Source: Rhodobacter sp. (GTDB lineage: Bacteria > Pseudomonadota > Alphaproteobacteria > Rhodobacterales > Rhodobacteraceae). Taken from it: 64,000 nucleotides of DNA. The notes below the pieces were generated by a model. The model was not told the DNA's origin and did not search any database. It saw only the letters and a list, made by a program, of their open reading frames with translations. Where the stretch lies: positions 10,996 through 74,995 of the forward strand of contig JADCEN010000001.1 of assembly GCA_020250175.1 (NCBI GenBank), given 5' to 3'. The position numbers were made by a program, and so were the translations under genes. The stretch's first letter is position 1. The number at the start of each line of letters is the position of its first letter. Positions 17,904 through 39,350 of this stretch are shown here, piece by piece.

Positions 17904-17928
17904 GGCGACCCCCTGCCTTGCAAGCCTG

Positions 17929-17970
17929 GCGGCGGCCGCCTGCCCAAGGTTGGCCGCCGCATCCTTTTTT
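17929..17970 (+). terminator. Rho-independent terminator/attenuator after the SBP gene
   Basis: GCGGCGGCC (17929-17937) pairs with GGCCGCCGC (17952-17960), followed by a T6 run at 17965-17970. Confidence 0.6.
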
Positions 17971-17989
17971 CCGATCAGGAACCGCATCG

Positions 17990-21521: not shown

Positions 21522-21522
21522 C

Positions 21523-22632: not shown

Positions 22633-22657
22633 GACCGGCAACCTGGGGCGCAGGATC

Positions 22658-23692
22658 ATGAAGGCTTTTCTCCTGCATGGCGCGGCGGACCTGCGCCTGG
22701 CTGACCTGCCTGTGCCGGACCCCAAAGCCGGCGATGTCCTGATTGCCGTTCGCCGTGCCGGCATCTGCGGGTCGGACTTGCATTACTATGGCCATTTCCG
22801 GATCGGCAGCTTCATCCCCAAGCGCCCCTTCGTTCTTGGCCATGAATTTGCGGGCGAGATTGTCGCGGTGGGGGCAGGGGTCGCGGCCACCCGGATCGGC
22901 GAGCGCGTGACCGTGGATCCGTCGATGCCCTGCGGTGTCTGTGGCGATTGCCGCAGGGGGCGCTACAACCTTTGCCGCGACATGCGCTTTTATGGTTCGG
23001 CCAGCTGCGATCCGCATGTCAACGGCGGGTTCGAGGAATTCGTGACCGCCCCCGCTGCGAACTGCCTGACACTGCCGGACGCCCTGGACTGGGGGCAGGC
23101 CGCGATGATTGAACCCCTGTCCGTTGCCGTTCATGCCCTGGGGCGTGCGGCAACGGTGGCCGGCAAGACCGTGCTGGTCACAGGCGGCGGCACCATCGGA
23201 CAAGTGACGGCGCTGGTTGCCCGCGCCTTCGGCGCGGCCTGCGTCGTGCTCAGCGACATTGCCCCCGGCCCCCGCGCCATTGCGCTGGCGCGGGGTGCCG
23301 ATGCCGTGCTCGATGCCAGCGACCCCGACTTTGTCCTTCAGGCGGGAAATCTTGCCCCCGGCGGGTTCGACCTGGTGGTCGAGGCGGCGGGGTCTGCCCA
23401 GGCATTGGAACAGGGGCTGCACACAGCCCGCCGTGGCGGCACGATCGTGCAGGTCGGCACCCTGCCGGGCAGCGTGACGCTTCCGCTTAACCTGGTCATG
23501 GCCCGCGAACTGGCAATTGTGGGATCGTTCCGCTTTGCCAACGCGTTCCAGACATCGATCAACCTCGTTGCGCAGGGGCGGATTGATGTGCGGCCCTTGA
23601 TCACGGCGGTCTATCCGCTTGCCGAGTTGCCTGTGGCCATCGAAGCTGCAATCCATGACCGGCGCAACATCAAGGTCCAGATCGCGCCATGA
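22658..23692 (+). CDS. Zn-dependent alcohol/polyol dehydrogenase (MDR family)
   Basis: GHEFAGEIV, structural-zinc Cys cluster CGVCGDCRRGRYNLC, and the NAD motif VTGGGTIG. ATG at 22658. Confidence 0.85.
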   Translation: MKAFLLHGAADLRLADLPVPDPKAGDVLIAVRRAGICGSDLHYYGHFRIGSFIPKRPFVLGHEFAGEIVAVGAGVAATRIGERVTVDPSMPCGVCGDCRRGRYNLCRDMRFYGSASCDPHVNGGFEEFVTAPAANCLTLPDALDWGQAAMIEPLSVAVHALGRAATVAGKTVLVTGGGTIGQVTALVARAFGAACVVLSDIAPGPRAIALARGADAVLDASDPDFVLQAGNLAPGGFDLVVEAAGSAQALEQGLHTARRGGTIVQVGTLPGSVTLPLNLVMARELAIVGSFRFANAFQTSINLVAQGRIDVRPLITAVYPLAELPVAIEAAIHDRRNIKVQIAP

Positions 23693-24207: not shown

Positions 24208-25158
24208 TCACTCAGGCGCCATGCCGCCCGGGCCGTCTTCAGGCCCGGTCGGACCCTTGCCGTTGAAGTCGGGCCTCTCTTGCCGCCCGGACCGGACGTC
24301 TGACAGCAGACGTTTCATTTCTGCAATGCGGTCCTGCCCGGCGCGGTTCCGGCCAAGGCTGACCGCGGTGGAAAGGATATCGATCACGACCATTGCCGAC
24401 AGGCGCGAGACGGTTGGCGTGAAAAGGTCTGTGTTTTCAAGTGTTTCGGCCACGATCGCGATGCTGCAATGGGAAAGCAGCGGGCCACGGGACCCGGTGA
24501 TTGCGATTGTCGTTGCGCCTTTTTCCTGCGCGATGCGCGCGGCGCGAACCACATCAACCGTCGTTCCGGTGTTTGAAATCGCGACGGCCACATCATCCGG
24601 GGCCAGCATGGCGGCAGCCATCAGCATCTGGTGGCCATCGGTCTGCGCGCTGCAGGGTGCACCGAACAGCGGAAACTTCTGCTGCGCGTCGATCGCCACG
24701 ATGCCGGATGCCCCCAGACCGAAGAATTCAATCCTCGGGGCCGCCGAAAGTGCTGCCACGGCCGCGCGGATTGCGTCCGGATCAAGATGCGCGCGCACCC
24801 AAGCAAGGTTGGAAAGGTTGAAGTCGAAAATCTTTCCGGTGATCTCGCCCAGATCGTCGGCCGGGCCTATGGCCGAATGCGAGGTTGTGCGCGCAAAGGC
24901 CAGCGACCGTGCAAGCTTGACGCGCAGATCGCGAAAACCCTCGCAACCGATTGCAGCCGCAAAGCGGATCACGGTTGGTTCGCTGACACCCGACGCAGCG
25001 GCCAAGGTGCCAAGCGTCATCTCGACGGCTGCTTGCGGTGCTTGCAGAATTCTGTCTGCCACACGCCGCTCTGACCGGCGCAGGTCGGGCAGACTGCGGG
25101 CGATAACCTCCAGAAGGTTGTCCTCGACTGCCGTCGTGCGTACCGCCTCAGTCGCCAT
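24208..25158 (-). CDS. RpiR/HexR-family transcriptional regulator (HTH_6 + SIS)
   Basis: N-terminal HTH ...LGTLAAASGVSEPTVIRFAAAIGCEGFRDLRV... followed by a SIS domain (FFGLGASGIVA...AISNTGTT). Confidence 0.85.
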   Translation of the reverse strand: MATEAVRTTAVEDNLLEVIARSLPDLRRSERRVADRILQAPQAAVEMTLGTLAAASGVSEPTVIRFAAAIGCEGFRDLRVKLARSLAFARTTSHSAIGPADDLGEITGKIFDFNLSNLAWVRAHLDPDAIRAAVAALSAAPRIEFFGLGASGIVAIDAQQKFPLFGAPCSAQTDGHQMLMAAAMLAPDDVAVAISNTGTTVDVVRAARIAQEKGATTIAITGSRGPLLSHCSIAIVAETLENTDLFTPTVSRLSAMVVIDILSTAVSLGRNRAGQDRIAEMKRLLSDVRSGRQERPDFNGKGPTGPEDGPGGMAPE

Positions 25159-25990
25159 GGCTTCCGTCCGCTTCGATCCGCAGCGTCTGTCCGGCGACCG
25201 GTCGCAGGATTGTCAGCGCCCGCTCTGCCGCTGCCGCCCGATCAATGGCCGAAGAATTGCAGGTGTTGAAAGAAAACATGCCGAAATGATGCGGAACAAG
25301 GACAGAAGCCCCTGACGCCCGCGTCAGTTCGACGGCTTCCTGCAGGGTGAAGTTGCCGGGTATGCCCGCGGACAGGCGTCGGGCGTCACGGCCGTTCACC
25401 GGCAGCAGGGTGATGTCCGGGCAAAACGCGCGCAGGGACGCGCCGAGCCCGTCGAAGGGAATGCAATCGCCCGAATGATAGATCCTGATCCCGTCGGCCA
25501 GAAGGCCATAACCCAGAAAGACGTGCCGCCCCCCGGCATCGGTTTCGGGCGTCTCATGCGCGGCCGGAAAAACCTGAACCGTCAGGTCGGGGCCAAAGTG
25601 GATGACCTGCCCGGCATCCGCGGGCACCAGCCGCGCGCCCGGACCGGTCCGCGCCCGCGCCACGTCCATCCGCGCAGCGGGGACGACGACGGGAACCTCG
25701 GGAAAGCGCCCCACAAGCGGACCCAGCGTGTCGGGGTCCATGTGATCGGTATGGGCATGCGTGATCAGCACGACATCCGGGCGCGGCAGGTCCTGCGGCA
25801 GGACGGGCGCGGGCATCATGCGGCGATGGTCATTCGCCTGCCCCGCATACTTGCGCGCCAGACTGTCTGACAGATAGGGGTCGATCAGAACCCGCATCCG
25901 CCCCGTTTCGATCCAGAACCCCGCCTGCCCCAGCCAGAAAAGGCCCGGCGTCCCGGGCGCAGGCCAGCCGGGCGCACGCTTAATCCGCAT
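25148..25990 (-). CDS. Metallo-beta-lactamase-fold hydrolase (candidate lactonase)
   Basis: HxHxDH motif (THAHTDHMD). Later His/Asp ligands are present. ATG at 25990. Confidence 0.8.
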   Translation of the reverse strand: MRIKRAPGWPAPGTPGLFWLGQAGFWIETGRMRVLIDPYLSDSLARKYAGQANDHRRMMPAPVLPQDLPRPDVVLITHAHTDHMDPDTLGPLVGRFPEVPVVVPAARMDVARARTGPGARLVPADAGQVIHFGPDLTVQVFPAAHETPETDAGGRHVFLGYGLLADGIRIYHSGDCIPFDGLGASLRAFCPDITLLPVNGRDARRLSAGIPGNFTLQEAVELTRASGASVLVPHHFGMFSFNTCNSSAIDRAAAAERALTILRPVAGQTLRIEADGSHGD

Positions 25991-26918
25991 CGCCGTCCAG
26001 CACCAGCAAAAGGTTCTCGACCGCCCGGATCGTACTGCGTTCGACCGAGGCATCGGTGAACCCGCCGATATGGCTGGTCATCACCACGCCGGGATGGGCC
26101 AGCAGCGGCGAAGGCGCAGGCGGCTCTGTCTCGAAGACATCCGTCGCATAGCAGGCGATACGGCCAGACCCCAACGCCGCCCGCACCGCCTGCGGATCGA
26201 CCAGCCCGGCGCGGGCGGTGTTGACCACCACCGCCCCCTGCGCCAGTGTCGATATCCGCGCCCCTGTCAGCAGCGGCTGACCATCGGCGGGCATGGGCGC
26301 ATGCAGGCTGACCACATCCGCCTGCGCAACCGCCGCATCCAGCGTCGTGCGGGTAAGTCCCCTGTCCGCAAAAAGACCTTCGGGCGCATGGGGATCATGG
26401 CCCGCAACCCTTGCCCCCAGATCAAGGCACATCCGCGCATAGGCCGTGCCGACGGCCCCCAGACCGACAACCGCGACCCGTGCGCCCGCAATCTCGCGCC
26501 CCAGGCTGCGTGGCCAGTCGCCCCGCCGCATCCCTTCGTGGGTCCAGACGATCCGCCGCAGGCCCGCCAGGGTCAGGGCAAGCGCCAGTTCCGCCACGCC
26601 CCGCGCATTGCTGCCCTCGGCGCGGAACACCGGGATTTGCCGTGCCTCCAGCGCAGGCAGCGGCAGGTTGTCCACGCCTGTTCCGTTCCGGCTGATCACG
26701 CGCAATCGCCGCGCGGCGTCGATCACCGCCGTGCTGACGGGTTCCACCCCGGCCAGCCAGCCAAGACAGTCCGGTACCGCCTGAAGCAACGCCTTTTCGT
26801 CCGGTATCTTCCCCGGCGCGGGCATCACAAGGTCATAGCCCCGTTCCTGCAGCACGGTCAGGGCAGGGTGGCCGCCTTTCGACAGCGACCGGGGCGTGAT
26901 CATGATGGTCCCCTTCAT
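25980..26918 (-). CDS. D-isomer-specific 2-hydroxyacid dehydrogenase (PGDH-like)
   Basis: NAD motif VVGLGAVG and catalytic region ...NTARAGLVD...TSHIGG. Confidence 0.85.
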   Translation of the reverse strand: MKGTIMITPRSLSKGGHPALTVLQERGYDLVMPAPGKIPDEKALLQAVPDCLGWLAGVEPVSTAVIDAARRLRVISRNGTGVDNLPLPALEARQIPVFRAEGSNARGVAELALALTLAGLRRIVWTHEGMRRGDWPRSLGREIAGARVAVVGLGAVGTAYARMCLDLGARVAGHDPHAPEGLFADRGLTRTTLDAAVAQADVVSLHAPMPADGQPLLTGARISTLAQGAVVVNTARAGLVDPQAVRAALGSGRIACYATDVFETEPPAPSPLLAHPGVVMTSHIGGFTDASVERSTIRAVENLLLVLDGDAD

Positions 26919-27865
26919 GCACCGCGCCCCGTCACGCGGGCGGCAATGGCCGCAATCCGGTCAAAGGCGGGGCCACGCACCGGAATGTCCGCATGAAACA
27001 CCTCGGCGATCACCTGTGTCCAGCCGTGGATGAAGTAGGTCCAGCCATCCTCGACCTGCAAGCGCTGCCGTGCCGCCTGCGCACGGGCCTGATCAAGAAA
27101 GACCAGATCGCCGCGATAGTTCAGGTCCCACGCAATGGCACCTTGCGGAAACCGCGCCGCATCGGTGATCGGCGAGCCGGGCGTATCCTTGCCCAGCCCC
27201 GTCGCGTTGATAACCAGCGCGCCGGGCGAAAGGCCCGCCATCACGGCGTCATTGTCGCCGGGGTGCGGGGCCAGGATGCAATCAACCGGAATGCCGTGAC
27301 CAAGGCTGCGGTGGATCGCCGCCACATGATCGAGCCGCGCCTGGCTGCGGTTCGAGACAAGGATGCGCGACGGGCGATCCCTGCCGCGCGCCGCCTGCGA
27401 CAGATGCCATGTCAGCGCGATGGTGGACCCGCCCGCCCCCATCGAAAAGACCTCGGCCCGCGTGCGCGCGAAATGTCCCATTGGCACGAAGGAGTCCAGG
27501 GCAAGGCCGGAAGAGATCGGGTCCTTCGCATGGCACAGGAAGCGCCCGTCGCGCTTGGACAGGCAGCTTGTCTCCTGCATCAGCGCGGCAAGGGGATCAA
27601 CCTCATCGAACATGTCCTGCGCCGCCGCGAACAGGTCAAGCTTGTGCGTCGTCACCAGCGCCCCGCGCGACCGCGGGTCGGATTTAAGGAACGAGACCAC
27701 CTTGCGGTAGCGTTCCGGCCTGTCATGCGGCACAAGGTCGATGCCGCGCATGTCGACGTCGCCAAGGCCCAGATGGCGCGCCCATTCCGGAAACACGCGC
27801 ATGATCGACGACTGCCCCGTCGTGACCCCGATAAACCAGAAGGTGGCCTTTTCGGCGGGTTTCAT
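26915..27865 (-). CDS. Shikimate-dehydrogenase-family (AroE-like) oxidoreductase
   Basis: 316 aa. SMGAGGS nucleotide motif and ...VINATGLG... with SDH-like topology. ATGA overlap with eda. Confidence 0.75.
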   Translation of the reverse strand: MKPAEKATFWFIGVTTGQSSIMRVFPEWARHLGLGDVDMRGIDLVPHDRPERYRKVVSFLKSDPRSRGALVTTHKLDLFAAAQDMFDEVDPLAALMQETSCLSKRDGRFLCHAKDPISSGLALDSFVPMGHFARTRAEVFSMGAGGSTIALTWHLSQAARGRDRPSRILVSNRSQARLDHVAAIHRSLGHGIPVDCILAPHPGDNDAVMAGLSPGALVINATGLGKDTPGSPITDAARFPQGAIAWDLNYRGDLVFLDQARAQAARQRLQVEDGWTYFIHGWTQVIAEVFHADIPVRGPAFDRIAAIAARVTGRGA

Positions 27866-28506
27866 CCCGCGCCCCTGATCCGTGCCACCGCCGCGACCGC
27901 CGCCCGTGCATTGGCGACGATGCGGTCCCAGTTTCCCGCAGCGATATCGGCGCGGGTCGCGATCCAGGTTCCGCCGACGGCCCGCACCTGGGGGATGGCC
28001 AGCCAGTCGCCAAGCGTGGCAAGGGTGATGCCCCCCGTCGGATTGAAGCCCAGGCCCGTATGCGCATAGGGCGCGGCGATGCTTTTCAGCATGTCTGTCC
28101 CGCCGGCGGCCACCGCAGGAAAGAACTTCACCATCCGGCAGTCGGCCCGCAGCGCTGCCTGCAGGTCGCTTGGCGTCATGATCCCCGGCGCGAACGGCAG
28201 ACCGCGCCCCTTTGCATGGGCCAGCACCGCCTGGTCCAGCCCGGGCGACAGCGCAAATCTGGCACCCGCCGCGATGGAATCGTCGACCTGCGCTTCGGTC
28301 AGCACCGTACCCGAACCCACGATCATCTGCGGGCGATGCGTGGCCATCGCGATGATCGTGTCGCGCGCGGCCGCCGTGCGAAAAGTGATCTCGGCCACCG
28401 GAAGCCCCCCGGCGATCAACGCATCCGCCAGCGGCAGCGCAGAACCCGGATCGTCGATTGCGATGACGGGCACGACGCCGTGGCGGGAAAGCTCATCGAA
28501 GATCAT
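27862..28506 (-). CDS. eda: KDPG/KHG-type class I aldolase
   Basis: VVPVIAI...AEITFRT...VGSGTVL...MVKFFPA (Schiff-base Lys context). 214 aa. Confidence 0.85.
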   Translation of the reverse strand: MIFDELSRHGVVPVIAIDDPGSALPLADALIAGGLPVAEITFRTAAARDTIIAMATHRPQMIVGSGTVLTEAQVDDSIAAGARFALSPGLDQAVLAHAKGRGLPFAPGIMTPSDLQAALRADCRMVKFFPAVAAGGTDMLKSIAAPYAHTGLGFNPTGGITLATLGDWLAIPQVRAVGGTWIATRADIAAGNWDRIVANARAAVAAVARIRGAG

Positions 28507-29124
28507 TCACGCCCCCGTTGCATGAATGGCCGCAATCTCGGCTGCGGTGCGCGGCCGCCAGCGGGGGTTTTCCACGGTCCTCCAGCCGTCACCATCCGCA
28601 ACGACGCGCACACGCATGCCGTTCGACCGCGCGATGATCCCGTACTCCTGCCCGGAATCTGCCGGGTACACGAAGGTCATGACCAGCGGCGCTGTTCCGG
28701 TGTTCACCGACCGGTGAATCCAGCAGGGCGGCACATAGATGGTTGCTCCGGGTGTCACCTCCAGGGTGGCGATCTGCCCATCGGGGCTTTCCAACACCAT
28801 GACGCCGCGCCCAAGCTCGCCGCGATAGGTCTCGGGGCGATTGGCGACGGCATGGATATGGCCGCGGGTCATGAAAAACTCGTCCCCGATCCGACCGGGC
28901 AGCATATGCGTGACCCCAAAGCAGATATCGCCGCTTGCACCGCTGGGACGGAAATCCTCGACCGAGTAGACAACCCGGTCGCCCGCCCCCAGCGCCGCCT
29001 GAAAAGCCGCCGCGTCGGCATAAAGCCCGACCAGATCGGACAACCGCTTTTCATAGCGGTTGGTGCTTGCGGACAGGGTGCCGTCCTGTGGCGAAAGGTG
29101 ATGGACCGACGGGGTGACAAGCAT
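28507..29124 (-). CDS. Cupin-type phosphoglucose-isomerase family protein
   Basis: TRGHIH...ETY and VPPCWIHRSVNTG match the cupin-PGI metal-binding motifs (TxGHxH, PPxxxHRxxN). 205 aa. First gene of the operon. Confidence 0.8.
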   Translation of the reverse strand: MLVTPSVHHLSPQDGTLSASTNRYEKRLSDLVGLYADAAAFQAALGAGDRVVYSVEDFRPSGASGDICFGVTHMLPGRIGDEFFMTRGHIHAVANRPETYRGELGRGVMVLESPDGQIATLEVTPGATIYVPPCWIHRSVNTGTAPLVMTFVYPADSGQEYGIIARSNGMRVRVVADGDGWRTVENPRWRPRTAAEIAAIHATGA

Positions 29125-29144
29125 GGGATTGCTCCGCAGAATTT

Positions 29145-29159
29145 TGTAGTCAAACTACA
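29145..29159. promoter_or_regulatory. Perfect palindrome TGTAGT-CAA-ACTACA (candidate RpiR/HexR operator)
   Basis: Lies 21 nt upstream of the cupin-PGI start in the 209-bp divergent spacer. A second copy is at 29259-29273. Confidence 0.45.
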
Positions 29160-29258
29160 CAAATGATCGAACAGTTCAACCGCATTGCGCCCCGATTGCC
29201 AAAGCTGGCAACATTCCTACAGAAGACAGACAGCATTTCTGACGCATCTCCTGGTATC

Positions 29259-29273
29259 GGTAGTTTCACTACA
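29259..29273. promoter_or_regulatory. Second operator-like palindrome GGTAGT-TTC-ACTACA
   Basis: One mismatch relative to the first site. Lies 61 nt upstream of the ABC permease start at 29334. Confidence 0.4.
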
Positions 29274-29333
29274 TTTCCGATTGCTTTGTCAGACGACTCG
29301 GGCCAGTATCCTGTGGCATGGTGGGGGCACTGG

Positions 29334-30221
29334 ATGACGGCGTCGGCGGAACGGCAGGACGGGATAAAGCACCTGTTCATCTGGCCGGCCTTCCTGATTG
29401 TTCTGGTCATCTCGCTGTTTCCGCTGATCTACGCCTTGACCGTCAGCTTTCAGACCGTCCGTATCGTGCCGCCGACGCCGCCGCGCTTTGTCGGGCTGGA
29501 CAACTATGCGCAGATCGCCTCGTCAGCGCGGTTCTGGGGCGCGATCGGCACGACGGCGCTGATCACCTTCCTGTCGGTTGCCGCGCAATATGTGCTGGGC
29601 TTCCTGCTTGCCCTTGCGCTGCACCACAACGTGCCCGGCGCATCGCTTTACCGTGTGACGTTCCTTTTGCCGATGTTCCTGGCCCCGGTGGGCGTGGCGC
29701 TGATTGCGCGGATGGTGTTCCACCCGTACCTTGGCCCGGTGAACGACGCGATGGCGGGCCTCGGCTTTGCCTATGTGCCGTTCCTGACCGAAAAGTGGCC
29801 CGCGATCATGGTCCTTGCTGTCATCGACACCTGGCAATGGACGCCCTTTGTCACCCTGCTGATGCTGGCCGGGCTTCAGGGGCTGCCGCAAGAGGTGTTC
29901 GAAGCCGCGCGCGTTGACAACATCGGCGCGTGGCGGCGGTTCTGGGGCATCACTTTCCCGATGCTGCTGCCGCTGTCTGTGGCGGTGATCTTCATCCGCC
30001 TGATCGAGGGCTTCAAGATCATTGACACCGTCTTTGTCCTGACGGGGGGCGGCCCCGGCACGGCAACCGAGACGCTGACGCTGTTCGCCTATAACGAGGG
30101 GTTCAAGAAGTTCAACCTTGGCCTGACTTCGGCCCTGTCCTTTCTGTTCCTGATCGTTGTCATCGTCTTCGCAACGGTCTACCTTGCCGCCGCGCAGCGC
30201 CTGACGCGGAGATATGCGTGA
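29334..30221 (+). CDS. Carbohydrate ABC transporter permease (CUT1, MalF-like)
   Basis: Six-TM pattern with EAA loop EVFEAARVDNIG. ATG at 29334. Confidence 0.85.
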   Translation: MTASAERQDGIKHLFIWPAFLIVLVISLFPLIYALTVSFQTVRIVPPTPPRFVGLDNYAQIASSARFWGAIGTTALITFLSVAAQYVLGFLLALALHHNVPGASLYRVTFLLPMFLAPVGVALIARMVFHPYLGPVNDAMAGLGFAYVPFLTEKWPAIMVLAVIDTWQWTPFVTLLMLAGLQGLPQEVFEAARVDNIGAWRRFWGITFPMLLPLSVAVIFIRLIEGFKIIDTVFVLTGGGPGTATETLTLFAYNEGFKKFNLGLTSALSFLFLIVVIVFATVYLAAAQRLTRRYA

Positions 30222-31237
30222 TAGAGAACCCGGGCCTTCGCCGGATAGGGCTGCTGCTTTGCCTTGTCTGGCTGTTCTTTGCGGCCTTCCCGCTTTACTG
30301 GGTGCTGGTCACGGCCTTCAAGCCGCCGCTCGCGGTGTCGCAGGGACCGACCTATATTCCCTTCGTCGACTTCCAGCCAACGATGCAGGCCTTCCGCGAT
30401 GCCTTTGCCGGCCTGCGCGGGGATTTCATCGGACCCATCGTCAGCTCCATCCTTGTGTCGGTCACGGCGACGGTCCTGTCCGTTTTCCTGGGAACGATGG
30501 CGGCCTATGCCCTTGTGCGCTTCACCTTCCGCATTCGCCTGCTGGCCGGGGTCGCCTTTGCGGTCATGTCCATCGGCGGTTTCATCCTGCTTGACAGCCT
30601 GACTGGCCTGCGCGTGCCCCATGCCCTGCTGATTGTCCTTTTCACAGCCCTTCCCGTGGCGGTCTGGCTGAACGGCCGCGCCCTTCCCGGGCCGATCCTG
30701 GGCAATGACGACGTGACCTTCTGGTTCGTGTCGCAGCGCATCTTTCCGCCCATCGTCTCGGCCTTCGCGATCTACCTGCTTTATGCCGAGATGGGCAAGA
30801 TCGGCCTGCCGCTGCTTGACACCTTCGGCGGGATGGTCATCGTCTATACGGCCTTCGGCCTGCCCTTCGCGGTCTGGCTGATGCGCGATTTCCTGACCAC
30901 CGTCCCGCTTGAGGTGGAAGAGGCCGCGATGGTTGACAACATCGGACGCATGCGCATCTTCTTGCAGATCGTGCTGCCCATGGCGACGCCGGGCCTGATT
31001 GCGACGTCCATGATCGTGCTTGCCTTTGTGTGGAACGAATTTCTTTTCGCGCTCCTGTTGACCACCGGCGACTGGCAGACGCTGCCGATCCTTCTGGCAG
31101 GCCAGAACAGCAGCCGGGGGGACGAATGGTGGGCGATCTCAGTCGCCGCTCTCATCTCCATCGGCCCGATGGTGGTGGTGGCGGCGATCCTTGGCCGGAT
31201 GATGCGGTCCGGCCTTCTGTCCGGCTCAATCAAGTGA
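30218..31237 (+). CDS. Carbohydrate ABC transporter permease (CUT1, MalG-like, with an extra hydrophobic insert)
   Basis: EAA loop EVEEAAMVDNIG. 339 aa. The GTG start overlaps the previous TGA. Confidence 0.8.
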   Translation: MIENPGLRRIGLLLCLVWLFFAAFPLYWVLVTAFKPPLAVSQGPTYIPFVDFQPTMQAFRDAFAGLRGDFIGPIVSSILVSVTATVLSVFLGTMAAYALVRFTFRIRLLAGVAFAVMSIGGFILLDSLTGLRVPHALLIVLFTALPVAVWLNGRALPGPILGNDDVTFWFVSQRIFPPIVSAFAIYLLYAEMGKIGLPLLDTFGGMVIVYTAFGLPFAVWLMRDFLTTVPLEVEEAAMVDNIGRMRIFLQIVLPMATPGLIATSMIVLAFVWNEFLFALLLTTGDWQTLPILLAGQNSSRGDEWWAISVAALISIGPMVVVAAILGRMMRSGLLSGSIK

Positions 31238-31257
31238 TCTTCATAAGGGAGGAAACA

Positions 31258-32697
31258 ATGAAGAAACTTCTGTTGACCGCTGCCCTGCTGCCCATCGGCG
31301 GCATGGCTGCGGCCCAGTGTGCGCCCGATTTCACGGGCGTCACGCTGAACGTCTCAACCCAGAACGGACCGGCCATCGCCTCGGCCCTGTCCGCCGCGGC
31401 CGAAGTCTGGGAGGCAAAGACCTGCGGCACCGTCAATGTGATCGAATTCCCCTTCGGTGAGCTCTATCCGAAATTCCTGACGGCCATGTCGCAGGGCACG
31501 GGCGATTTCGACGTGATCGGTTTTGTTCCGGCATGGTTGCCCGACTTCTCGCCCTTCCTGTCCACAATGCCCGCCGCGCTTCAGGAAGGCTCCAACTGGG
31601 ACGACATCCATCCGACCTACCGCGAGCGCCTGATGGTCTGGGACGGCGAGGTGAAGTCGGCCACGATGGATGGCGACATGCACATGCTGAACCTGCGTGC
31701 CGACCTTCTGGAAAACCCCGACGAACAGAAGGCCTTTGAAGCGAAATATGGCTACCCGCTTGCTGCGCCGGTGACCTGGGCGCAGTACCGCGATCAGGCG
31801 GAATTCTTCAACCGTCCCGATCAGGGCATGTATGGCACTGCCGAGGCCTATCGCCGGGGGGGCCAGCAGTTCTGGTATTTCTTCAGCCACGCCGCAAGCT
31901 ACACCAACAACCCCAACAACCCCGGGTCGATGTTCTTCGATCCCGAAACGATGGACGCCCAGATCAACAACCCCGGCTGGCTGCGCGCGCTGGAAGAATA
32001 CAAGGACGTCCTTCAGTTCAACCCGCCGGGTGCCTTGAACAACGGGTCGGGTGACGTGCGTCCGCTTTATGCCGGCGGAACCGTGGCGATGAACCTGGAC
32101 TGGGCGGATTCCGGCGTGCTCGGCTCTACCGAAGGGGTGATCGACGGGTATGTGCGCACCGCCATGCTGCCCGGCTCGACCGAGATCTGGAACCACAAGT
32201 CCAAGGCATGGGACACCTTCCCGGAGGTCATCCACTCGCCCTTCCTGGCCTTTGGCGGCTGGCAGCTTGGTGTGCCGGCAGACAGCAAGAACCAGGAAGC
32301 GGCATGGGATTTCGTGGCGACCGTCATCAGCCCCGAGGTTTCGGGCAGGGCGATCGTGACGGCAAACTCGGGCGTGAACCCCTACCGCTTCAGCCACTAC
32401 GACAATCTCGATGCCTGGTCTTCGATCTTCTCGGCGGAAGAGGCCGCGTCCTATCTGGGCGCGCAGCGCGCCTCGCTGGATGCGCCGAACGTCGCCCTCG
32501 ACCTGCGCCTGCCCGGCTTCTTCTCTTACACCGAAGTGCTGGAGATCGAGCTTTCCAAGGCGCTGGCGGGTGAGGTGGAACCCCAGGCGGCATTGGACGC
32601 CATCGCGGCGGAATGGAACCGTCTGACGGACGAGTTCGGCCGGGACACCCAGCTTGCGGCCTACCGCGCCTCGGTCGGCCTGCCGCCGCTGAAGTAA
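31258..32697 (+). CDS. Extracellular solute-binding protein (family 1, CUT1)
   Basis: Signal peptide MKKLLLTAALLPIGGMAAAQ. 479 aa. GGGAGG Shine-Dalgarno sequence. Confidence 0.85.
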   Translation: MKKLLLTAALLPIGGMAAAQCAPDFTGVTLNVSTQNGPAIASALSAAAEVWEAKTCGTVNVIEFPFGELYPKFLTAMSQGTGDFDVIGFVPAWLPDFSPFLSTMPAALQEGSNWDDIHPTYRERLMVWDGEVKSATMDGDMHMLNLRADLLENPDEQKAFEAKYGYPLAAPVTWAQYRDQAEFFNRPDQGMYGTAEAYRRGGQQFWYFFSHAASYTNNPNNPGSMFFDPETMDAQINNPGWLRALEEYKDVLQFNPPGALNNGSGDVRPLYAGGTVAMNLDWADSGVLGSTEGVIDGYVRTAMLPGSTEIWNHKSKAWDTFPEVIHSPFLAFGGWQLGVPADSKNQEAAWDFVATVISPEVSGRAIVTANSGVNPYRFSHYDNLDAWSSIFSAEEAASYLGAQRASLDAPNVALDLRLPGFFSYTEVLEIELSKALAGEVEPQAALDAIAAEWNRLTDEFGRDTQLAAYRASVGLPPLK

Positions 32698-32738
32698 GGC
32701 CGCGCCCGACACCGGGTCTTCCGGCACAGCGACGCCGC

Positions 32739-32770
32739 GCCCCCGGATCCAACCGGGGGCCGGTTTTTTT
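32739..32770 (+). terminator. Rho-independent terminator/attenuator after the SBP gene
   Basis: GCCCCCGG (32739-32746) pairs with CCGGGGGC (32753-32760), followed by CGGTTTTTTT. Confidence 0.6.
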
Positions 32771-32786
32771 CCAAGGAAACCGGCCG

Positions 32787-33848
32787 ATGTCCCACGTCGA
32801 ACTTGACGCGATCACGAAGTCATTCGGGGCCGTCAGTGTTCTGCCGCCCCTGTCGCTGTCCGTCGGGAAGGGCGAGTTTGTCGTTCTTGTCGGTCCGTCG
32901 GGCTGCGGCAAGACCACGACGCTGCGCATCCTGGCCGGGCTGGAAACGGCAACCTCGGGACAGGTGCGCATCAATGGCCGCGATGTGACGGCTGTGCGAC
33001 CGGGCGAGCGCAACATCGCCATGGTGTTTCAGAACTACGCCCTTTACCCGCACATGACGGTGCGCGGGAACATCGGCTATGCGATGAAGGTGCACGGTGT
33101 TTCCCGCGCCGAAATCGATGCCCGCGTGGACGAGGCGGCAAAGCTTCTTGCCCTTGATCCCTATATGGACCGCAAGCCGAAGAACCTGTCCGGCGGCCAG
33201 CGTCAGCGCGTTGCCATCGGCCGCGCGCTGGTGCGCCAGCCGGAAGTCTTCCTGTTCGACGAACCGCTTTCCAACCTGGATGCCAAACTGCGGGTCGAGA
33301 TGCGCACCGAGATCAAGCTTCTCCAGCGCCGCCTTGGCACAACCGCCGTCTATGTCACCCATGATCAGGTCGAAGCGATGACGATGGCGGATCGCGTGGT
33401 GGTCATGCGCAATGGCCGTATCGAACAGGCGGCAGACCCGATCACCCTTTATGAACAACCCGCGAACCGCTTTGTCGCGAACTTCATCGGCTCGCCCGCC
33501 ATGAACTTCTTCGAGGTACGGATCGAAAGTGGCGCGATCCTTCTTGGCTTGCAACGCTTGCCCCTGGTCGCGGCGGATGCCCGCCGCCTTTCGCACCGCC
33601 AGACGGTCATCTTCGGCATTCGCCCCGAACACATGCGCCATTCCTCGCACGAGGCCCGGCTCACCCTCTGGCCCGAGGCGATCGAACCGCTCGGGGCACA
33701 TACGCTCCTCCTCGGGCGGGCCGACGGGCAGAAGATCACTGCACAGGTCGACCCCCGCTTTCCCGCCAGTGTCGGACAGCCGTCCACCGTCACCGTTGAC
33801 ATGACCCAGGCCCATTTCTTTGATCCCGAAACCGAAGCCCGGCTGTGA
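32787..33848 (+). CDS. ABC transporter ATP-binding protein (MalK/UgpC type)
   Basis: Walker A GPSGCGKTT, signature LSGGQRQR, Walker B FLFDEP, and a C-terminal TOBE-like domain. Confidence 0.9.
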   Translation: MSHVELDAITKSFGAVSVLPPLSLSVGKGEFVVLVGPSGCGKTTTLRILAGLETATSGQVRINGRDVTAVRPGERNIAMVFQNYALYPHMTVRGNIGYAMKVHGVSRAEIDARVDEAAKLLALDPYMDRKPKNLSGGQRQRVAIGRALVRQPEVFLFDEPLSNLDAKLRVEMRTEIKLLQRRLGTTAVYVTHDQVEAMTMADRVVVMRNGRIEQAADPITLYEQPANRFVANFIGSPAMNFFEVRIESGAILLGLQRLPLVAADARRLSHRQTVIFGIRPEHMRHSSHEARLTLWPEAIEPLGAHTLLLGRADGQKITAQVDPRFPASVGQPSTVTVDMTQAHFFDPETEARL

Positions 33849-35344
33849 CACGCGATCTTTTCCTTGCCATTGATGTCGGGACGGGAAGCTGCCGCGCCGC
33901 GCTGGTTGATGCCGAAGGGCGCATCCACGCCATCGCCCACCGCGAACATGAACAGATCGTGCCCCGCCATGGCTGGTCAGAACAGCGCCCCGCCGACTGG
34001 TGGGAGGGAACCGTGCAAAGCATCCGCGCCGTTCTGGCGCGTGTCACCGACGCAGCCGCCCGCACCGCCGCGATCTGCGCCTGCGGCCAGATGCACGGCG
34101 CGGTGCTTGTGGATTCAAGCGGTCGGCTTACCCGCGATACCGCCCCCCTGTGGAACGACAAGCGCAGCGTCCCGCAGGTGAAGGCTTTCGCCGAAAGCGT
34201 CCATCTTGCGCAGGCGGTCCAGCTCACCGGCAACGCCCCCACACCGGCCTGGCCCGCCTTCAAGCTGGCCTGGCTGATGGAACAGGATGCGTCTGCCGTC
34301 GAACGCGCCGCGCATATCCTGATGCCGAAGGACTGGATAAACCTGAACCTCACGGGCATTGCGGCGCAGGATGTAACCGAAGCATCGCTCAGTTTCCTGA
34401 TGGACCGGCACAGCCGGGACTGGTCGCCACGGATGGTGGACATGACGGGAATTCCGGGGCGGCTGCTTCCGCGCCTCCGGCAGCCATCGGAGATCCTCGG
34501 CCCCCTTATCGGGGCCGCCGCACAGATGCTCGGCCTTCCTGCAGGGGTCCCGGTGCTTGCAGGGGCGGGGGATTATCCGATGGCGCTTCTCGGGTCAGGC
34601 GCGCTTGCCCCGGGGACGGGATCGGATGTGACGGGCACATCAACCATCGTCACGCTGATCCAGCCCGAACCGGTGATTGCAGAGGGTGTCTCGAACGTTC
34701 TTTCTGCGGCGGGCGCATGGGGCAGCTTCACCCTGCTCGACGCCGGGGGCGACGCGGTTCGCTGGGCACGCCGCGCGTTCCACGACAATGCGCTGTCCTT
34801 TGCCGATGTGGATGCCGCCGCCTCACGGTCGGTGCCGGGTGCCAACGCGCTTTTCTTCCTTCCCTACCTGTCTGGCGAACGCTTTGGCGCGCATCGCAAC
34901 TCGCGCGCGCATTTCATCGGGCTGACGGCAGGGCACGGCCTGCCCGACCTGCACCGCGCCGTTCTGGAAGGCGTTGCTTTCTCGGTCCGGCGGGAACTTG
35001 ATCGCCTGCAGGGCGGACACGGACGCCCCGCGCGCATCATCGCCGCCAGCGGGGGTGCCAAATCACGGCTCTGGCTTGGCATCAAGGCCGCCATGTACCG
35101 CACGCCCTATGTGATCGCCGCCGAGGCCGAATGCGGCGTTATCGGCGCGGGGATTCTGATGGCGGTGGCAACTGGCGCTGCGCATGATCTTGCCGGGGCA
35201 ACGGCGCGGATGGTGCGGTTCACCGACGAAATCGAACCCGATCCTGCGGCCGCAGACCGGTATGACCGCATGATGCCCATCTATGCGGACGCATATCGCG
35301 CCATGCAGCCATTCTATGATCGGCTCGACAGCATCGCGGGCTGA
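33845..35344 (+). CDS. FGGY-family carbohydrate kinase (xylulokinase-like)
   Basis: LAIDVGTGSCRAAL...HGWSEQ...GAGDYPMA...GGAKS. 499 aa. GTGA overlap with the ATPase gene. Confidence 0.85.
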   Translation: MTRDLFLAIDVGTGSCRAALVDAEGRIHAIAHREHEQIVPRHGWSEQRPADWWEGTVQSIRAVLARVTDAAARTAAICACGQMHGAVLVDSSGRLTRDTAPLWNDKRSVPQVKAFAESVHLAQAVQLTGNAPTPAWPAFKLAWLMEQDASAVERAAHILMPKDWINLNLTGIAAQDVTEASLSFLMDRHSRDWSPRMVDMTGIPGRLLPRLRQPSEILGPLIGAAAQMLGLPAGVPVLAGAGDYPMALLGSGALAPGTGSDVTGTSTIVTLIQPEPVIAEGVSNVLSAAGAWGSFTLLDAGGDAVRWARRAFHDNALSFADVDAAASRSVPGANALFFLPYLSGERFGAHRNSRAHFIGLTAGHGLPDLHRAVLEGVAFSVRRELDRLQGGHGRPARIIAASGGAKSRLWLGIKAAMYRTPYVIAAEAECGVIGAGILMAVATGAAHDLAGATARMVRFTDEIEPDPAAADRYDRMMPIYADAYRAMQPFYDRLDSIAG

Positions 35345-36131
35345 TGCGCCTGCCGGTCGGTGGCATGGCCGGGGCAGGGGGTGGAGCGCGGCCGTCCGAC
35401 CGCTTGACAGGTGGCGCTTGCCCCCCGGTTGCAGTCATCGCAGCTATCGGCGTTCGCGCGGTCTGACCGGGCGGGAGGACGGATGTACCCGGTCAGGCGG
35501 TCGCCGAGCCGGACAAAAGCGGGTCCGCCCCCGCAATCGGTCTGTGGTCAGTCTTTGGAAACCGCGTCCGGTCCGTCGCACCGGGCCGGGCGCGACAGCA
35601 CTCTGACCGCTTGGGTTCGGTTTGGTAAGGGCCGTTCGGCATGAAGCCCGGCGGCTGCATTCCTGCGTTGCCTTCTGTCCCTGCCGCAGTGCCACGGGCG
35701 GCACCTTGGTTTCCGAAGCCAGTGCCAAGGCCCGGCATGCAGCCGGACCATCTGCCATTCTGCGCCACTGCGCGGACCATGCCTGCGGGAAGGCTGTTGC
35801 TGACCACAGGGCCAGGTTGTATCGGCCCTTGCCCCCTGTACGCCAGTGTCTCGCGGATAGTTGCGTTCGCAACCAAGGCAGGCCAACCGCGACTGCAGGG
35901 TGCCCCCCGGTGTAAAGCGGTCCATGCCCGACAAGATTGCGCTGCACGACTGTCGGCGGTCCTTTTCCGCCTATCGCTGAACCTGCCTGCGCGATGACGC
36001 AAGACAAAGTGGCGCGGACAGGCAAGGAAAGCGGCAAGGGCCGAAAATACGGGGGATGCCGGTCTTGCAGGCGGCGTCACGATGCACGAGGCCTGTGGTT
36101 TCGGCCTGACCGGTGAAAGCCGGGTGCACCC

Positions 36132-36404
36132 ATGCAGCCGGTTGCCATCATCGGGATCGACCCGGCAGACAGTATTTTCCGGTGTCATGGCGCGGCTGCG
36201 GGTGCAACCGGTTTGGTCCGCAAGAAGCGGTCATACCCGCAACTCCTGCGGTCCATCGTGGCGCATCCCCCCTTTACTGCGGCCAGGGCGAAATGGCCGG
36301 GCGCACGCCGTCCCACGCGCGGGGGAACCATGGCCCGGCATCCCGCGCAGATGATCCCGGCGCGGCGGGTGACGCCCCGCAGTTGCGGGTCGCACCGACC
36401 GGGC
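36132..36404 (+). mobile_element. IS110-family transposase N-terminal remnant (degenerate, truncated)
   Basis: VAIIGIDPADSIFRCHGAAAGATGLVRKKRSYPQLLRSIVAHPPF...RHPAQMIPARRVTP parallels IGIDLAK.VFQVHG.D..G.vv.rkkL.R.qll.f...lPP...GHeVrLiPPayVKP. The remainder of the gene is missing. Confidence 0.45.
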
Positions 36405-37454
36405 TCAGTAGGTCGTGAACCCGCCGTCGGTCGCATAAGTTGCGCCCGTCAGGTTGGACGACTCGTTCGACAGCAGGAACAGCATGACGGCCACCTGTTC
36501 CGCCGGGGTTGCATCGCGGCCATTCTGATCGGACCATTGCAGCAGGCTTTTGGTCTTCAGAAGGGCGATGCCGGGCGGTTTGCCGGTAAGGGCGGCGCGT
36601 TGCCGCAACAGGGTCATGGCGCGCTCGACCATCGGGGTTGCGGTATTTGCCATGCAGACCGAATTCACTCGGATGCCGTAAGGTGCATAGTCAATGGCCG
36701 CGTTCTTTGTCAGCCCGTTGACGGCATGTTTGCTGGCAACATAGGATGGCGTGCCCCCGAACCCGCGCAGCCCCGCGACCGAAGCCACGTTGACGATGGT
36801 GCCGCCGCGCTTTTGCGCCAGCATCTGGCGCAGTTCGCTGCGCATGCATTTGAAAACGCCGGTGACGTTCACCCGCATGACAACATCCCAGTAGGCATCG
36901 CTGGCCTCATCGATCCGGGCCATGGCCAGATCCTTCTGCGCGGCGTAGTCGATCGGCTCTGCGGGGAAGATCGCATCCATCACGCCCGCGTTGTTCAGCG
37001 CGCAGTCCAGCCCGCCAAAGCGGTCTGCCGCCGTCTTGACCATGGCATCGCACACCGCGTTTTCCGAGACATCGCCGAAAACGAATTCCGCCTTCCCGCC
37101 TTCGGCCACAACATCGGCGACCACCGCCGCACCTTCGTCCTGCAGCCAGTCCACGCCCACCACATTGGCCCCTTCGCGGGCCAGCCGCAGGGTTGCCATC
37201 CGCCCCATCCCGCGGGCACAGCCGGTGACGATCACCGTCTTGCCGGCAAAGCGGCCCGGAATGAAGTAGTCGTCGGGGATTGCCACGACATTGGTCAGAA
37301 ACGGATCCAGCGGGTCTGCGGGATCGCGCGGCGTGGCGAAGGCACCGGGCACGGCGGACACCGTTTGCGCCCGGTCCTCCGGCGCGGCGGCGGTTGCCGC
37401 CACGCTTCCGGCGGCGGCAAGGCCCAAGGTCCTGAGGGCATCACGTCTGTCCAT
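36405..37454 (-). CDS. Short-chain dehydrogenase/reductase with a twin-arginine (Tat) signal peptide
   Basis: MDRRDALRTLGLAAAGSVAATAAAP, then a ~55-aa arm, then TGCARGMG, NNAG and S...YxxxK (SYVASKHAV). Confidence 0.85.
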   Translation of the reverse strand: MDRRDALRTLGLAAAGSVAATAAAPEDRAQTVSAVPGAFATPRDPADPLDPFLTNVVAIPDDYFIPGRFAGKTVIVTGCARGMGRMATLRLAREGANVVGVDWLQDEGAAVVADVVAEGGKAEFVFGDVSENAVCDAMVKTAADRFGGLDCALNNAGVMDAIFPAEPIDYAAQKDLAMARIDEASDAYWDVVMRVNVTGVFKCMRSELRQMLAQKRGGTIVNVASVAGLRGFGGTPSYVASKHAVNGLTKNAAIDYAPYGIRVNSVCMANTATPMVERAMTLLRQRAALTGKPPGIALLKTKSLLQWSDQNGRDATPAEQVAVMLFLLSNESSNLTGATYATDGGFTTY

Positions 37455-37487
37455 CGTCAAGGTTCCTTGTGTGGGTCGATTGCGGGA

Positions 37488-39245: not shown

Positions 39246-39350
39246 GGCGGGGCATTCCAAAATCCGAACCTGCCGCAAGTATGGGTGCATCCGCCGGAAC
39301 GCCAAGCGCAAAAGCCGGGTTCAGGCCGACAATCTGCCCAAAATGGGCGG

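Follow-up and report, generated by a model that had tools for sequence, protein, structure and literature searches.

A conserved, putatively Entner–Doudoroff-like carbohydrate gene cluster marked by a divergent shikimate-dehydrogenase-fold oxidoreductase

Organization of the cluster

We analysed a 64 kb stretch of a Rhodobacter sp. contig (JADCEN010000001.1, positions 10,996 to 74,995; the window), and within it a divergent cluster of genes for an ABC transporter, a sugar kinase, a regulator and five enzymes. Six closely packed genes on the minus strand, running from 29124 down to 24208, lie opposite a plus-strand operon for an ABC transporter of the carbohydrate uptake transporter 1 (CUT1) type and an FGGY-family kinase (Table 1). 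We rate the cluster as a carbohydrate catabolic regulon with Entner–Doudoroff (ED)-like logic. With slightly less than an even chance, in our estimate, it serves as a single regulon by which a hexitol- or ketohexose-type carbohydrate is taken up and then catabolized along an ED-like route.

The open reading frame (ORF) map and translations gave the coordinates that a first-pass annotation of this DNA had assigned to the cluster, and the tight packing described there was seen again when the junctions were read directly from the sequence. The stop codon of the isomerase gene abuts the start codon of the aldolase gene (TGAATG, a 0-nt gap), ATGA overlaps join the aldolase gene to the shikimate dehydrogenase (SDH)-like gene and the latter to the phosphoglycerate dehydrogenase (PGDH)-like gene, and 11-nt overlaps join the PGDH-like gene to the metallo-β-lactamase (MBL) gene and the MBL gene to that of the RpiR-family regulator. 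In the plus-strand operon, GTGA overlaps are present between the two permease genes and between the ATPase and kinase genes. The overlapping or abutting minus-strand genes would fit co-translation. Some start codons leave a choice. One gene caller placed the start of the PGDH-like gene 5 codons later; the ATGA overlap is seen again in relatives. The MBL ORF is extendable to 26053, with 280-aa relatives favouring a start at 25990. For permease 1 the gene caller took a 352-aa form, and the Marinovum orthologue has 294 aa; the alternative start at 29163 would place the second of the two palindromes described below within the gene.

Table 1. Features of the divergent cluster. Positions are those of the window unless another locus is given.
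Feature	Position	Strand	Domain, model or context
RpiR-family regulator, HexR-like	24208-25158	-	HTH_6 + SIS
MBL-fold hydrolase, UlaG-like	25148-25990	-	Lactamase_B_2
D-2-hydroxyacid dehydrogenase, short PGDH type	25980-26918	-	2-Hacid_dh_C
SDH-like: divergent SDH-fold oxidoreductase, cluster signature gene	26915-27865	-	profile search + structure model
Eda, canonical KDPG/KHG aldolase (predicted)	27862-28506	-	PF01081, TIGR01182
Cupin-type phosphosugar aldose-ketose isomerase, cPGI family	28507-29124	-	GPI PF06560
Operator-like palindrome copy 1, GTAGT-CAA-ACTAC	29146-29158		divergent intergenic region
Operator-like palindrome copy 2, GTAGT-TTC-ACTAC	29260-29272		divergent intergenic region
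CUT1 ABC permease 1	29334 (or 29163)-30221	+	BPD_transp_1 (Pfam)
CUT1 ABC permease 2	30218-31237	+	BPD_transp_1 (Pfam)
Periplasmic solute-binding protein (SBP), CUT1 type, 479 aa	31258-32697	+	SBP_bac_1
G+C-rich hairpin followed by a T run, between SBP and ATPase genes	32739-32760	+	consensus match only
MalK-like ABC ATPase	32787-33848	+	ABC_tran, OB_MalK, TOBE_2
FGGY-family sugar kinase	33845-35344	+	FGGY_N, FGGY_C
GlcD-like FAD-linked oxidase (other loci)	L026 7719-9158; L090 6799-8211; 11 further Burkholderiaceae loci

Enzymes of the minus-strand operon

Every family call of the first-pass annotation proved correct in Pfam and NCBIfam profile searches, the SDH fold being recognized only from a structure model and a search with a family profile. 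The isomerase is a cupin-type phosphoglucose isomerase (cPGI), matching Pfam GPI (PF06560) at 9.8e-51, with 172 bits against a cutoff of 20.7, and Protein Data Bank (PDB) entry 1j3p at 6.2e-42. A relative from Sinorhizobium meliloti, SMb20857 (about 55% identical), reportedly shows phosphoglucose isomerase (PGI) activity in vitro. Two signature motifs, TX3PX3GXEX3TXGHXHX6-11EXY and PPX3HX3N, are both found in the window protein, and also in 74 of 83 and 81 of 83 orthologues, respectively. The motifs of this family were reportedly described by Hansen et al. in 2005.

The MBL-fold protein matches Lactamase_B_2 (PF12706; 4.3e-28) and carries the metal-binding motif HxHxDH as THAHTDH; all 67 of 67 orthologues have it too. 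The ascorbate-6-phosphate lactonase UlaG had been put forward as a precedent for this enzyme, and UlaG is indeed the top PDB match found by Foldseek (2wyl; E 5.6e-16, template modelling (TM) score 0.75, 22% identity) for the AlphaFold2 model, which has a mean predicted local distance difference test (pLDDT) score of 91.2. The sequence falls far below the UlaG equivalog model NF008688, with 24.9 bits against a cutoff of 306. The MBL enzyme may thus work like UlaG without being a member of that family, and judging from the modelled fold its role would be that of a phosphosugar lactonase.

The 2-hydroxyacid dehydrogenase matches 2-Hacid_dh_C (PF02826) at 4e-45, with 1wwk as the closest PDB entry (6.3e-41) and short PGDHs as the nearest relatives, and it stays below the SerA equivalog model TIGR01327 (179 bits against a cutoff of 454). 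All 59 of its 59 orthologues contain a GxGxxG-17-D motif, whose aspartate is a typical NAD-binding residue, so that the enzyme is probably NAD-dependent. We considered whether the MBL and the 2-hydroxyacid dehydrogenase might be a glyoxalase II and D-lactate dehydrogenase pair. This was rejected, as the MBL is nearer to UlaG than to GloB, the dehydrogenase is nearer to PGDH than to LdhA, and glyoxalase I is absent.

The aldolase scored 188 bits with PF01081 (1.4e-55) and 212 bits with the eda model TIGR01182, over its cutoff of 156 bits; PDB matches include 1vhc (1.8e-45) and the Escherichia coli enzyme 1eua (1.7e-42). The window protein contains AEITFRT, VKFFPA, PTGG and GGTW, and the corresponding motifs E-I-T-x-R, K-F-F-P, PTGG and GG[ST]W occur in 42-43 of 43 cluster Edas. 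In this family they provide the Schiff-base lysine, the catalytic glutamate and the phosphate-binding GG with Ser/Thr, while the threonine of PTGG denotes the type acting on 2-keto-3-deoxy-6-phosphogluconate (KDPG) and not on its galactonate counterpart (KDPGal). By these residues, the cluster Eda is a canonical KDPG aldolase.

The fifth enzyme, SDH-like, is the signature of the cluster. Neither Pfam nor a sequence search of the PDB gave a hit for it, and a family profile search found weak matches to AroE (1nvt, 2.6e-7) and to a 5-ketofructose reductase (7cok, 3e-5). Its AlphaFold2 model (pLDDT 92.9), compared by Foldseek with the PDB, shows the full-length two-domain SDH fold, with 2hk9 at E 5e-17, a target TM score of 0.83 and 17% identity; identities of the structural matches are 14-21% overall. 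The Lys/Asp dyad (K75/D115) is invariant, with T[TA]HK in 87 of 87 and HAKDP in 84 of 87 orthologues. An NRS motif, the AroE counterpart of which is the NADP-binding NRT motif, is found in 66 of the 87 orthologues, and the enzyme is probably NADP-dependent. Database entries name this protein 'shikimate dehydrogenase', a name which AroE sequence models do not back, as aroE models give it 27-30 bits against cutoffs of 200-413. With AroE and Pfam sequence models failing, and no PDB sequence hit, we rejected AroE proper and a true shikimate or quinate role.

The 5-ketofructose reductase of Gluconobacter (7cok/7col) shares with SDH-like the SDH fold, the Lys/Asp dyad, NADP(H)-type binding and a sugar, not shikimate, as substrate, and is thus a precedent for an SDH-family oxidoreductase acting on a sugar. 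It differs in that it is only 14-17% identical to SDH-like, no closer than AroE, and in that its substrate is an unphosphorylated diketose.

Transporter, kinase and regulator

The SBP of the window matches SBP_bac_1 (1.2e-15) and, weakly, the PDB sugar/polyol SBPs 1eu8, 5iai and 4rya, and the ATPase matches ABC_tran (2.5e-36), OB_MalK (1.2e-12) and TOBE_2. The kinase has both FGGY_N (3.8e-55) and FGGY_C domains; with 317 bits for the XylB model TIGR01312, under the cutoff of 380 bits, it comes closest to xylulokinase by profile score without being its equivalog. Scanning the cluster for consensus promoters and terminators gave nothing informative except the hairpin between the SBP and ATPase genes, in which 8 of 8 pairs are G-C and which is followed by TTTTTTT. 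It could be an intra-operon attenuator that raises expression of the SBP over the downstream genes.

The regulator belongs to the RpiR family, with HTH_6 at 2.2e-19 and SIS at 1.4e-17. Its top NCBIfam model is HexR, at 232 bits, under the 296-bit cutoff of that subfamily; the AlsR model matched at 4.9e-39, also below cutoff. The 209-bp divergent intergenic region contains the palindrome GTAGT-N3-ACTAC twice, with no other match in the 64 kb window (0.06 expected). When one mismatch was allowed across 83 loci, the palindrome was found within 400 nt upstream of the cPGI gene in 56 of them, and 84 of the 111 occurrences fell within the 2.2% of DNA that is upstream of cPGI. Where the cPGI gene lies inside the operon, as in one variant, the palindrome is found at the operon's first gene instead. 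HexR senses KDPG, and the palindrome is similar to HexR operators. The RpiR/HexR-like protein probably represses both divergent operons.

Conservation and gene-set variants

Conservation of the neighbourhood was analysed with the SDH-like protein as marker, by tblastn followed by a scan of one genome per species. We fetched 80 loci and compared 25 query proteins with all loci; counts are over the 71 loci that have at least 7 kb on either side, the window included. SDH-like relatives were confirmed in at least 593 species genomes, and the gene set recurs in dozens of genera of Alpha- and Betaproteobacteria. The closest of the fetched loci is in a metagenome-assembled genome of Rhodobacteraceae (67-89% protein identity). 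The neighbours of the SDH-like gene were the same on plasmids of Marinovum, Sinorhizobium (one strain only), Rhizobium, Pararhizobium, Shinella and Lichenicola.

Beside the SDH-like gene, cPGI was found in 68 of the 71 loci, the FGGY kinase in 66, RpiR in 63, the MBL in 58, the PGDH-like enzyme in 50 and Eda in 37. Co-conservation of the genes and the putative operator common to the two operons indicate that they form one conserved, co-regulated unit. Chance neighbours without functional unity would be the simplest alternative, to which we give practically no credence, because the set is conserved in both Alpha- and Betaproteobacteria, the genes overlap, and the conserved operator motif is common to both operons.

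The invariant core consists of the FGGY kinase, cPGI and SDH-like, and the other enzymes are added to it in a nested manner: the core only in 8 loci, the core plus MBL in 9, the PGDH-like enzyme in addition in 11, and Eda as well in 34, so that 62 of the 71 loci follow one of these four patterns. The PGDH-like gene is missing in all 12 Burkholderiaceae loci and in the Verminephrobacter locus. In all 13 of these 13 betaproteobacterial loci, a gene for a GlcD-like oxidase linked to flavin adenine dinucleotide (FAD) lies directly beside cPGI. These oxidases have FAD_binding_4 and FAD-oxidase_C domains, score 247 bits with TIGR00387, below its cutoff, and are 67-100% identical to the query, the Paraburkholderia tropica protein (L026). 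A more distant relative is nearby in 4 alphaproteobacterial loci without the PGDH-like gene. The GlcD-like oxidase in place of the PGDH-like gene suggests that oxidation of a D-2-hydroxy acid is retained across a change of enzyme family.

The transporter is interchangeable: 12 loci have the CUT1 type of the window and 41 a CUT2 type. CUT2-type loci mostly add short-chain dehydrogenases/reductases (SDRs), a GldA-type dehydrogenase and a haloacid dehalogenase (HAD)-type phosphatase, whereas CUT1-type loci are without extra SDRs, save one that also has a CUT2 transporter. An aldo/keto reductase gene follows the kinase gene in 10 CUT1-type loci. The window has no such reductase; the approximately 1 kb after its FGGY gene (35345-36400) contains no convincing gene and no similarity to the aldo/keto reductase or HAD genes found after the kinase gene in those 10 loci, and may reflect a deletion or rearrangement in this genome.

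Other variants were seen as well. Five loci (L002, L034, L043, L050 and L060) have a true deoxyribose-phosphate aldolase, DeoC (TIGR00126, above cutoff), and an FGGY kinase that differs from the first one, together with a GldA-type dehydrogenase and an SDR of the GolD/DthD family, and in Kaistia/Bosea loci (L014, L016 and L018) a DeoC and kinase pair takes the place of the usual kinase. A Shinella zoogloeoides plasmid (L006) bears a distant version with another gene order, in which SDH-like is 51% identical and which encodes a GlpK-like kinase, a 447-aa MBL, two xylose-isomerase-like 'sugar phosphate isomerase/epimerase' proteins, an inositol monophosphatase and a galactitol-1-phosphate 5-dehydrogenase. 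A smaller related locus on pSymB of the reference S. meliloti strains, 1021 included, SMb20851-SMb20857 (L087/L088), has the same CUT2 transporter (its SBP is 91% identical to that of Rhizobium leguminosarum) and the cPGI (pgiA2), whereas its FGGY kinase is another one, its regulator is of the SorC type and the SDH-like gene is absent. A frameshift interrupts its gene for a GatD-like Zn-dependent dehydrogenase, and part of a gene for an FMN (flavin mononucleotide)-dependent hydroxyacid dehydrogenase follows cPGI. This locus is probably a decaying relative, and we did not use it to constrain the pathway.

A proposed pathway and its alternatives

On the reading that we prefer, control would be exerted by the RpiR/HexR-like repressor binding to the two GTAGT-N3-ACTAC palindromes between the operons. 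The compound would be imported by the ABC transporter and phosphorylated at a terminal carbon by the FGGY kinase, and the resulting ketose phosphate would be converted by the cupin isomerase to an aldose phosphate. The NADP-type SDH-fold enzyme would then oxidize the ring form to a phospho-aldonolactone, which the UlaG-like MBL enzyme would open. Finally, the NAD-type PGDH-like enzyme would oxidize the (2R)-hydroxyl of the phospho-aldonate, and Eda would cleave the 2-keto acid to a C3 keto acid and glyceraldehyde-3-phosphate. The analysis shows the gene families, the conserved unit, the operator, the nested gene presence and the swap of the 2-hydroxyacid enzyme; we infer all the substrates, which carbon the SDH-fold enzyme attacks and how the 3-position is dealt with. 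The first-pass annotation, which put forward this order of steps, stands in part. Nested gene presence and, more strongly, the swap of the 2-hydroxyacid enzyme for an FAD oxidase lend the order comparative support, and the UlaG-like fold of the MBL, the family and cofactor motifs of the two dehydrogenases and the intact Eda motifs also speak for it. As set out there, the chemistry does not close at the Eda step. Tetritol or pentitol routes were rejected, since the kinase and isomerase products (erythrose-4-phosphate, pentulose-5-phosphate) would already be central metabolites, and erythrose-4-phosphate cannot form a lactone.

Several points weigh against an ED-like route. Canonical KDPG aldolase requires a 2-keto-3-deoxy acid. 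In the fetched loci no dehydratase of the IlvD/Edd type or of the enolase superfamily is conserved with the cluster, so that if the sugar is an ordinary hexose the canonical Eda would be left without its 2-keto-3-deoxy substrate; oxidation of an ordinary 6-phosphoaldonate at C2 leaves the 3-hydroxyl in place. Bacterial cPGIs assayed in vitro are reportedly specific for fructose-6-phosphate (F6P) and glucose-6-phosphate (G6P), which would favour an ordinary hexose. The nested pattern is drawn from few lineages (the shorter forms are from Inquilinus, Burkholderiaceae and several Rhizobiaceae) and does not represent 62 independent events. Moreover, Inquilinus loci have only the kinase, cPGI and SDH-like genes, and the locus of Verminephrobacter eiseniae has the core and the FAD oxidase without MBL or Eda, so that some lineages must either do without the later steps or encode them at another place.

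Alternatively, the cluster might funnel keto-sugar or polyol phosphates to F6P/G6P, with the SDH-fold enzyme as an NADPH-dependent reductase similar to 5-ketofructose reductase, a polyol-phosphate dehydrogenase or a redox epimerase, and with the MBL, the 2-hydroxyacid dehydrogenase and Eda as an accessory or downstream branch. An epimerase might, for example, convert allose-6-phosphate to G6P at C3. The kinase, SDH-like and cPGI would then deliver an ordinary hexose phosphate. The invariant core is just this trio, which is all that Inquilinus loci have and to which the V. eiseniae locus adds the GlcD-like FAD oxidase; an NRS motif in SDH-family enzymes typically goes with NADP(H) reductase activity, 7cok being a keto-sugar reductase of the same fold; CUT1-type clusters have no separate polyol dehydrogenase; and on S. 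meliloti pSymB a GatD-like polyol-phosphate dehydrogenase accompanies this transporter and cPGI. However, the S. meliloti locus has frameshifted genes and may be decaying, an SDH-fold epimerase is without precedent, and the UlaG-like MBL, present in 58 of the 71 loci, and the 2-hydroxyacid dehydrogenase step, retained across the family change, would both be left without a role. We regard such a funnel as unlikely.

On the preferred, ED-like reading, the gap at the 3-hydroxyl might be closed in one of three ways. The sugar could already be 3-deoxy, so that the PGDH-like enzyme would form KDPG; Eda could cleave a 2-keto-3-hydroxy acid to hydroxypyruvate and glyceraldehyde-3-phosphate, which would be a new activity; or Edd or another enzyme could be supplied from elsewhere in the genome, the 2-hydroxyacid dehydrogenase having another role. 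IlvD/Edd relatives were found in 2 loci only, both of Marinovum, and the 6-phosphogluconate dehydratase Edd, whose formation of KDPG defines the ED pathway, is not encoded as part of the cluster. An enolase-superfamily gene of the window (21523-22632) was considered as the missing dehydratase and rejected: it is next to the cluster in the window only, is not co-conserved, and belongs to a separate transporter operon.

The first of the three ways has a substrate-specific form, the degradation of 3-deoxy hexoses such as 3-deoxyfructose or 3-deoxyglucosone, in which 3-deoxy-ketose-6-phosphate would be converted to 3-deoxy-aldose-6-phosphate, the lactone and 3-deoxy-6-phosphogluconate, and the PGDH-like enzyme would make KDPG for Eda. 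This is the sole scheme that requires only textbook family chemistry of every enzyme and no dehydratase. It is also in keeping with a HexR-like regulator, given that HexR senses KDPG, and with the true DeoC, another deoxy-sugar aldolase, of one cluster variant; the aldo/keto reductase of the 10 CUT1-type loci could reduce a 2-keto-aldose to the ketose. The window itself, though, lacks this reductase, the CUT2-variant SBP was presumably crystallized with D-talitol, an ordinary hexitol, and among abundant natural compounds no 3-deoxy hexose or hexitol is known to us that would warrant ABC uptake in at least 593 species. A dedicated 3-deoxy hexose route is quite unlikely.

The cluster might also be a dehydratase-free counterpart of the ED pathway for hexoses beyond the reach of Zwf, Pgl and Edd, for example D-psicose, D-allose or D-altritol, a series that differs from glucose at C3. 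In it, Eda would cleave with the 3-hydroxyl in place, or a 3-deoxy sugar would yield KDPG. We consider this version rather doubtful. It would call for three activities that to our knowledge lack precedents: oxidation of aldose-6-phosphate at C1 by an SDH-fold 1-dehydrogenase, hydrolysis by a UlaG-like 6-phospho-aldonolactonase, and the action of a 6-phospho-aldonate 2-dehydrogenase, whether PGDH-like or FAD-linked. That the cluster contains new enzyme chemistry is possible, if on the doubtful side.

A substrate lead from a crystallized binding protein

The SBP of a CUT2-type Rhizobium locus matches PDB entry 4RY9 at 5.8e-110. The sequence of 4RY9, rebuilt from the printed alignment, is 99% identical to a V. 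eiseniae protein encoded in an operon of the order cPGI - SDH-like - SBP - ATPase - permease - FGGY - HAD - SDR, with the RpiR gene and the FAD oxidase gene upstream. SDH-like, FGGY and cPGI of this operon are 60%, 49% and 53% identical to the window proteins, respectively. Its content thus places the crystallized SBP in the CUT2 variant of the cluster. We found no paper on this binding protein in open-access full text; its ligand is presumably D-talitol (the same compound as D-altritol), and CUT2 versions of the cluster probably take up D-talitol/D-altritol-like polyols. With D-talitol as the ligand, the stereochemistry of the D-psicose/D-allose series would suit the cluster enzymes. Allose-6-phosphate has the 2R configuration needed by a D-2-hydroxyacid dehydrogenase, and it agrees with KDPG at C4 and C5.

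Comparison with known systems

In full-text searches of the open-access literature we found no description of the gene set, consistent with the first-pass annotation, which could name no sugar pathway that it matches; a paper in a subscription journal may exist. Identity with the ula, E. coli als, Agrobacterium tumefaciens altritol/galactitol or erythritol/threitol pathways was rejected, as their defining enzymes are absent from the cluster.

The nearest likeness is to the ED pathway and the hex regulon of Pseudomonas, which comprises zwf-pgl-eda with a divergent hexR. Common to both, if the proposed roles hold, would be isomerization of a hexose-6-phosphate, oxidation at C1, lactone hydrolysis and KDPG-type cleavage by a canonical Eda, under an RpiR/HexR-like regulator with a palindromic operator. 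Only Eda and the type of regulator, however, are actually common to the two systems. The cluster has the SDH-fold enzyme, the UlaG-like MBL and the cupin isomerase for Zwf, Pgl and Pgi; it is without Edd or another dehydratase and has a 2-hydroxyacid dehydrogenase at Edd's position; and it comes with a transporter of its own and an FGGY kinase.

This likeness also raises the alternative that the cluster is a redundant upper ED/oxidative pentose-phosphate set for fructose, mannitol or sorbitol. In such a set cPGI would act as PGI, SDH-like as an isoenzyme of G6P dehydrogenase and the MBL as 6-phosphogluconolactonase, with Edd provided from elsewhere and the cluster Eda completing the route. That cPGI keeps every motif of the PGI family, that the architecture resembles the Pseudomonas regulon, and that loci without the later genes would still reach a central metabolite are all in line with this. 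But the conserved 2-hydroxyacid dehydrogenase step would be left without a role, these bacteria normally already have Pgi, Zwf and Pgl, and the relative of the cluster's SBP is presumably a binder of D-talitol and not of mannitol or sorbitol. We hold redundancy of this kind to be very unlikely.

The preferred, ED-like reading also has partial likenesses to other systems. In the E. coli ula/yiaK-S systems an MBL enzyme acts on a phosphorylated sugar lactone (UlaG being the closest structure) and an FGGY kinase, LyxK, feeds the pathway. The cluster, in contrast, has no UlaD-type decarboxylase and no UlaE/UlaF epimerases, and its MBL is only 22% identical to UlaG. The D-allose (als) system of E. 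coli shares RpiR-family control (AlsR), ABC uptake, a kinase and isomerization of a rare hexose phosphate, but uses an RpiB-type isomerase and the 3-epimerase AlsE to reach F6P, without oxidative steps or an aldolase. In A. tumefaciens C58, a D-altritol/galactitol pathway was reportedly described by Wichelecki et al. (J Biol Chem, 2015). It is similar in polyol ABC uptake, traced through the SBP ligand, in having polyol dehydrogenases and a ketohexose kinase, and possibly in the polyol itself (D-altritol, that is D-talitol), which may be that of the CUT2 variants. It differs in proceeding by a Zn-dependent dehydrogenase, a PfkB kinase and a GatZ-type tagatose-6-phosphate 4-epimerase to F6P, with none of the cluster's six enzymes.

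A parallel to the swap between the alpha- and betaproteobacterial clusters exists in 4-phosphoerythronate dehydrogenase, said to occur as NAD-dependent PdxB and FAD-dependent PdxR (Tazoe et al. 2006, J Bacteriol). There too, the enzyme acting on a phospho-aldonate is in one case a D-2-hydroxyacid dehydrogenase and in the other a GlcD-like FAD oxidase, although in a biosynthetic C4 pathway, whereas the cluster is catabolic and its acid probably C6.

If true, the ED-like reading would give a function to a large, unannotated branch of the SDH superfamily, now called 'shikimate dehydrogenase' in at least 593 species genomes, a physiological role to bacterial cupin PGIs and a second phosphosugar lactonase to the MBL fold, and it would put the solved binding protein 4RY9 into its biological setting. 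If the 3-hydroxyl is dealt with by new chemistry, it would also represent an ED-type route needing no dehydratase. The cluster is carried on rhizobial megaplasmids and chromids, and occurs in Burkholderiaceae, lichen-associated bacteria and algae-associated roseobacters, a host range from which the substrate is likely a plant, lichen or algal carbohydrate relevant to host association.

Neighbouring features of the window

On the plus strand, a separate operon of sugar-acid type (16878-23692) converges on the RpiR gene and is not co-conserved with the cluster. It encodes a CUT2 binding protein (Peripla_BP_4), permeases, an ABC ATPase, the MR_MLE dehydratase at 21523-22632 mentioned above and a Zn-dependent dehydrogenase (22529-23692). 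Beyond the other end of the cluster there is a convergent SDR gene (36405-37460) and, on the minus strand at 37488-39311, a 607-aa ORF with a weak match (6.5e-11) to Alginate_exp, the domain of AlgE-type outer-membrane channels. Strong negative AT skew, of -0.25 at 18001-20000 and -0.31 at 50001-52000, coincides with CUT2 permease genes (18074-19950 and 50074-51998) and is probably due to the codon usage of membrane proteins.

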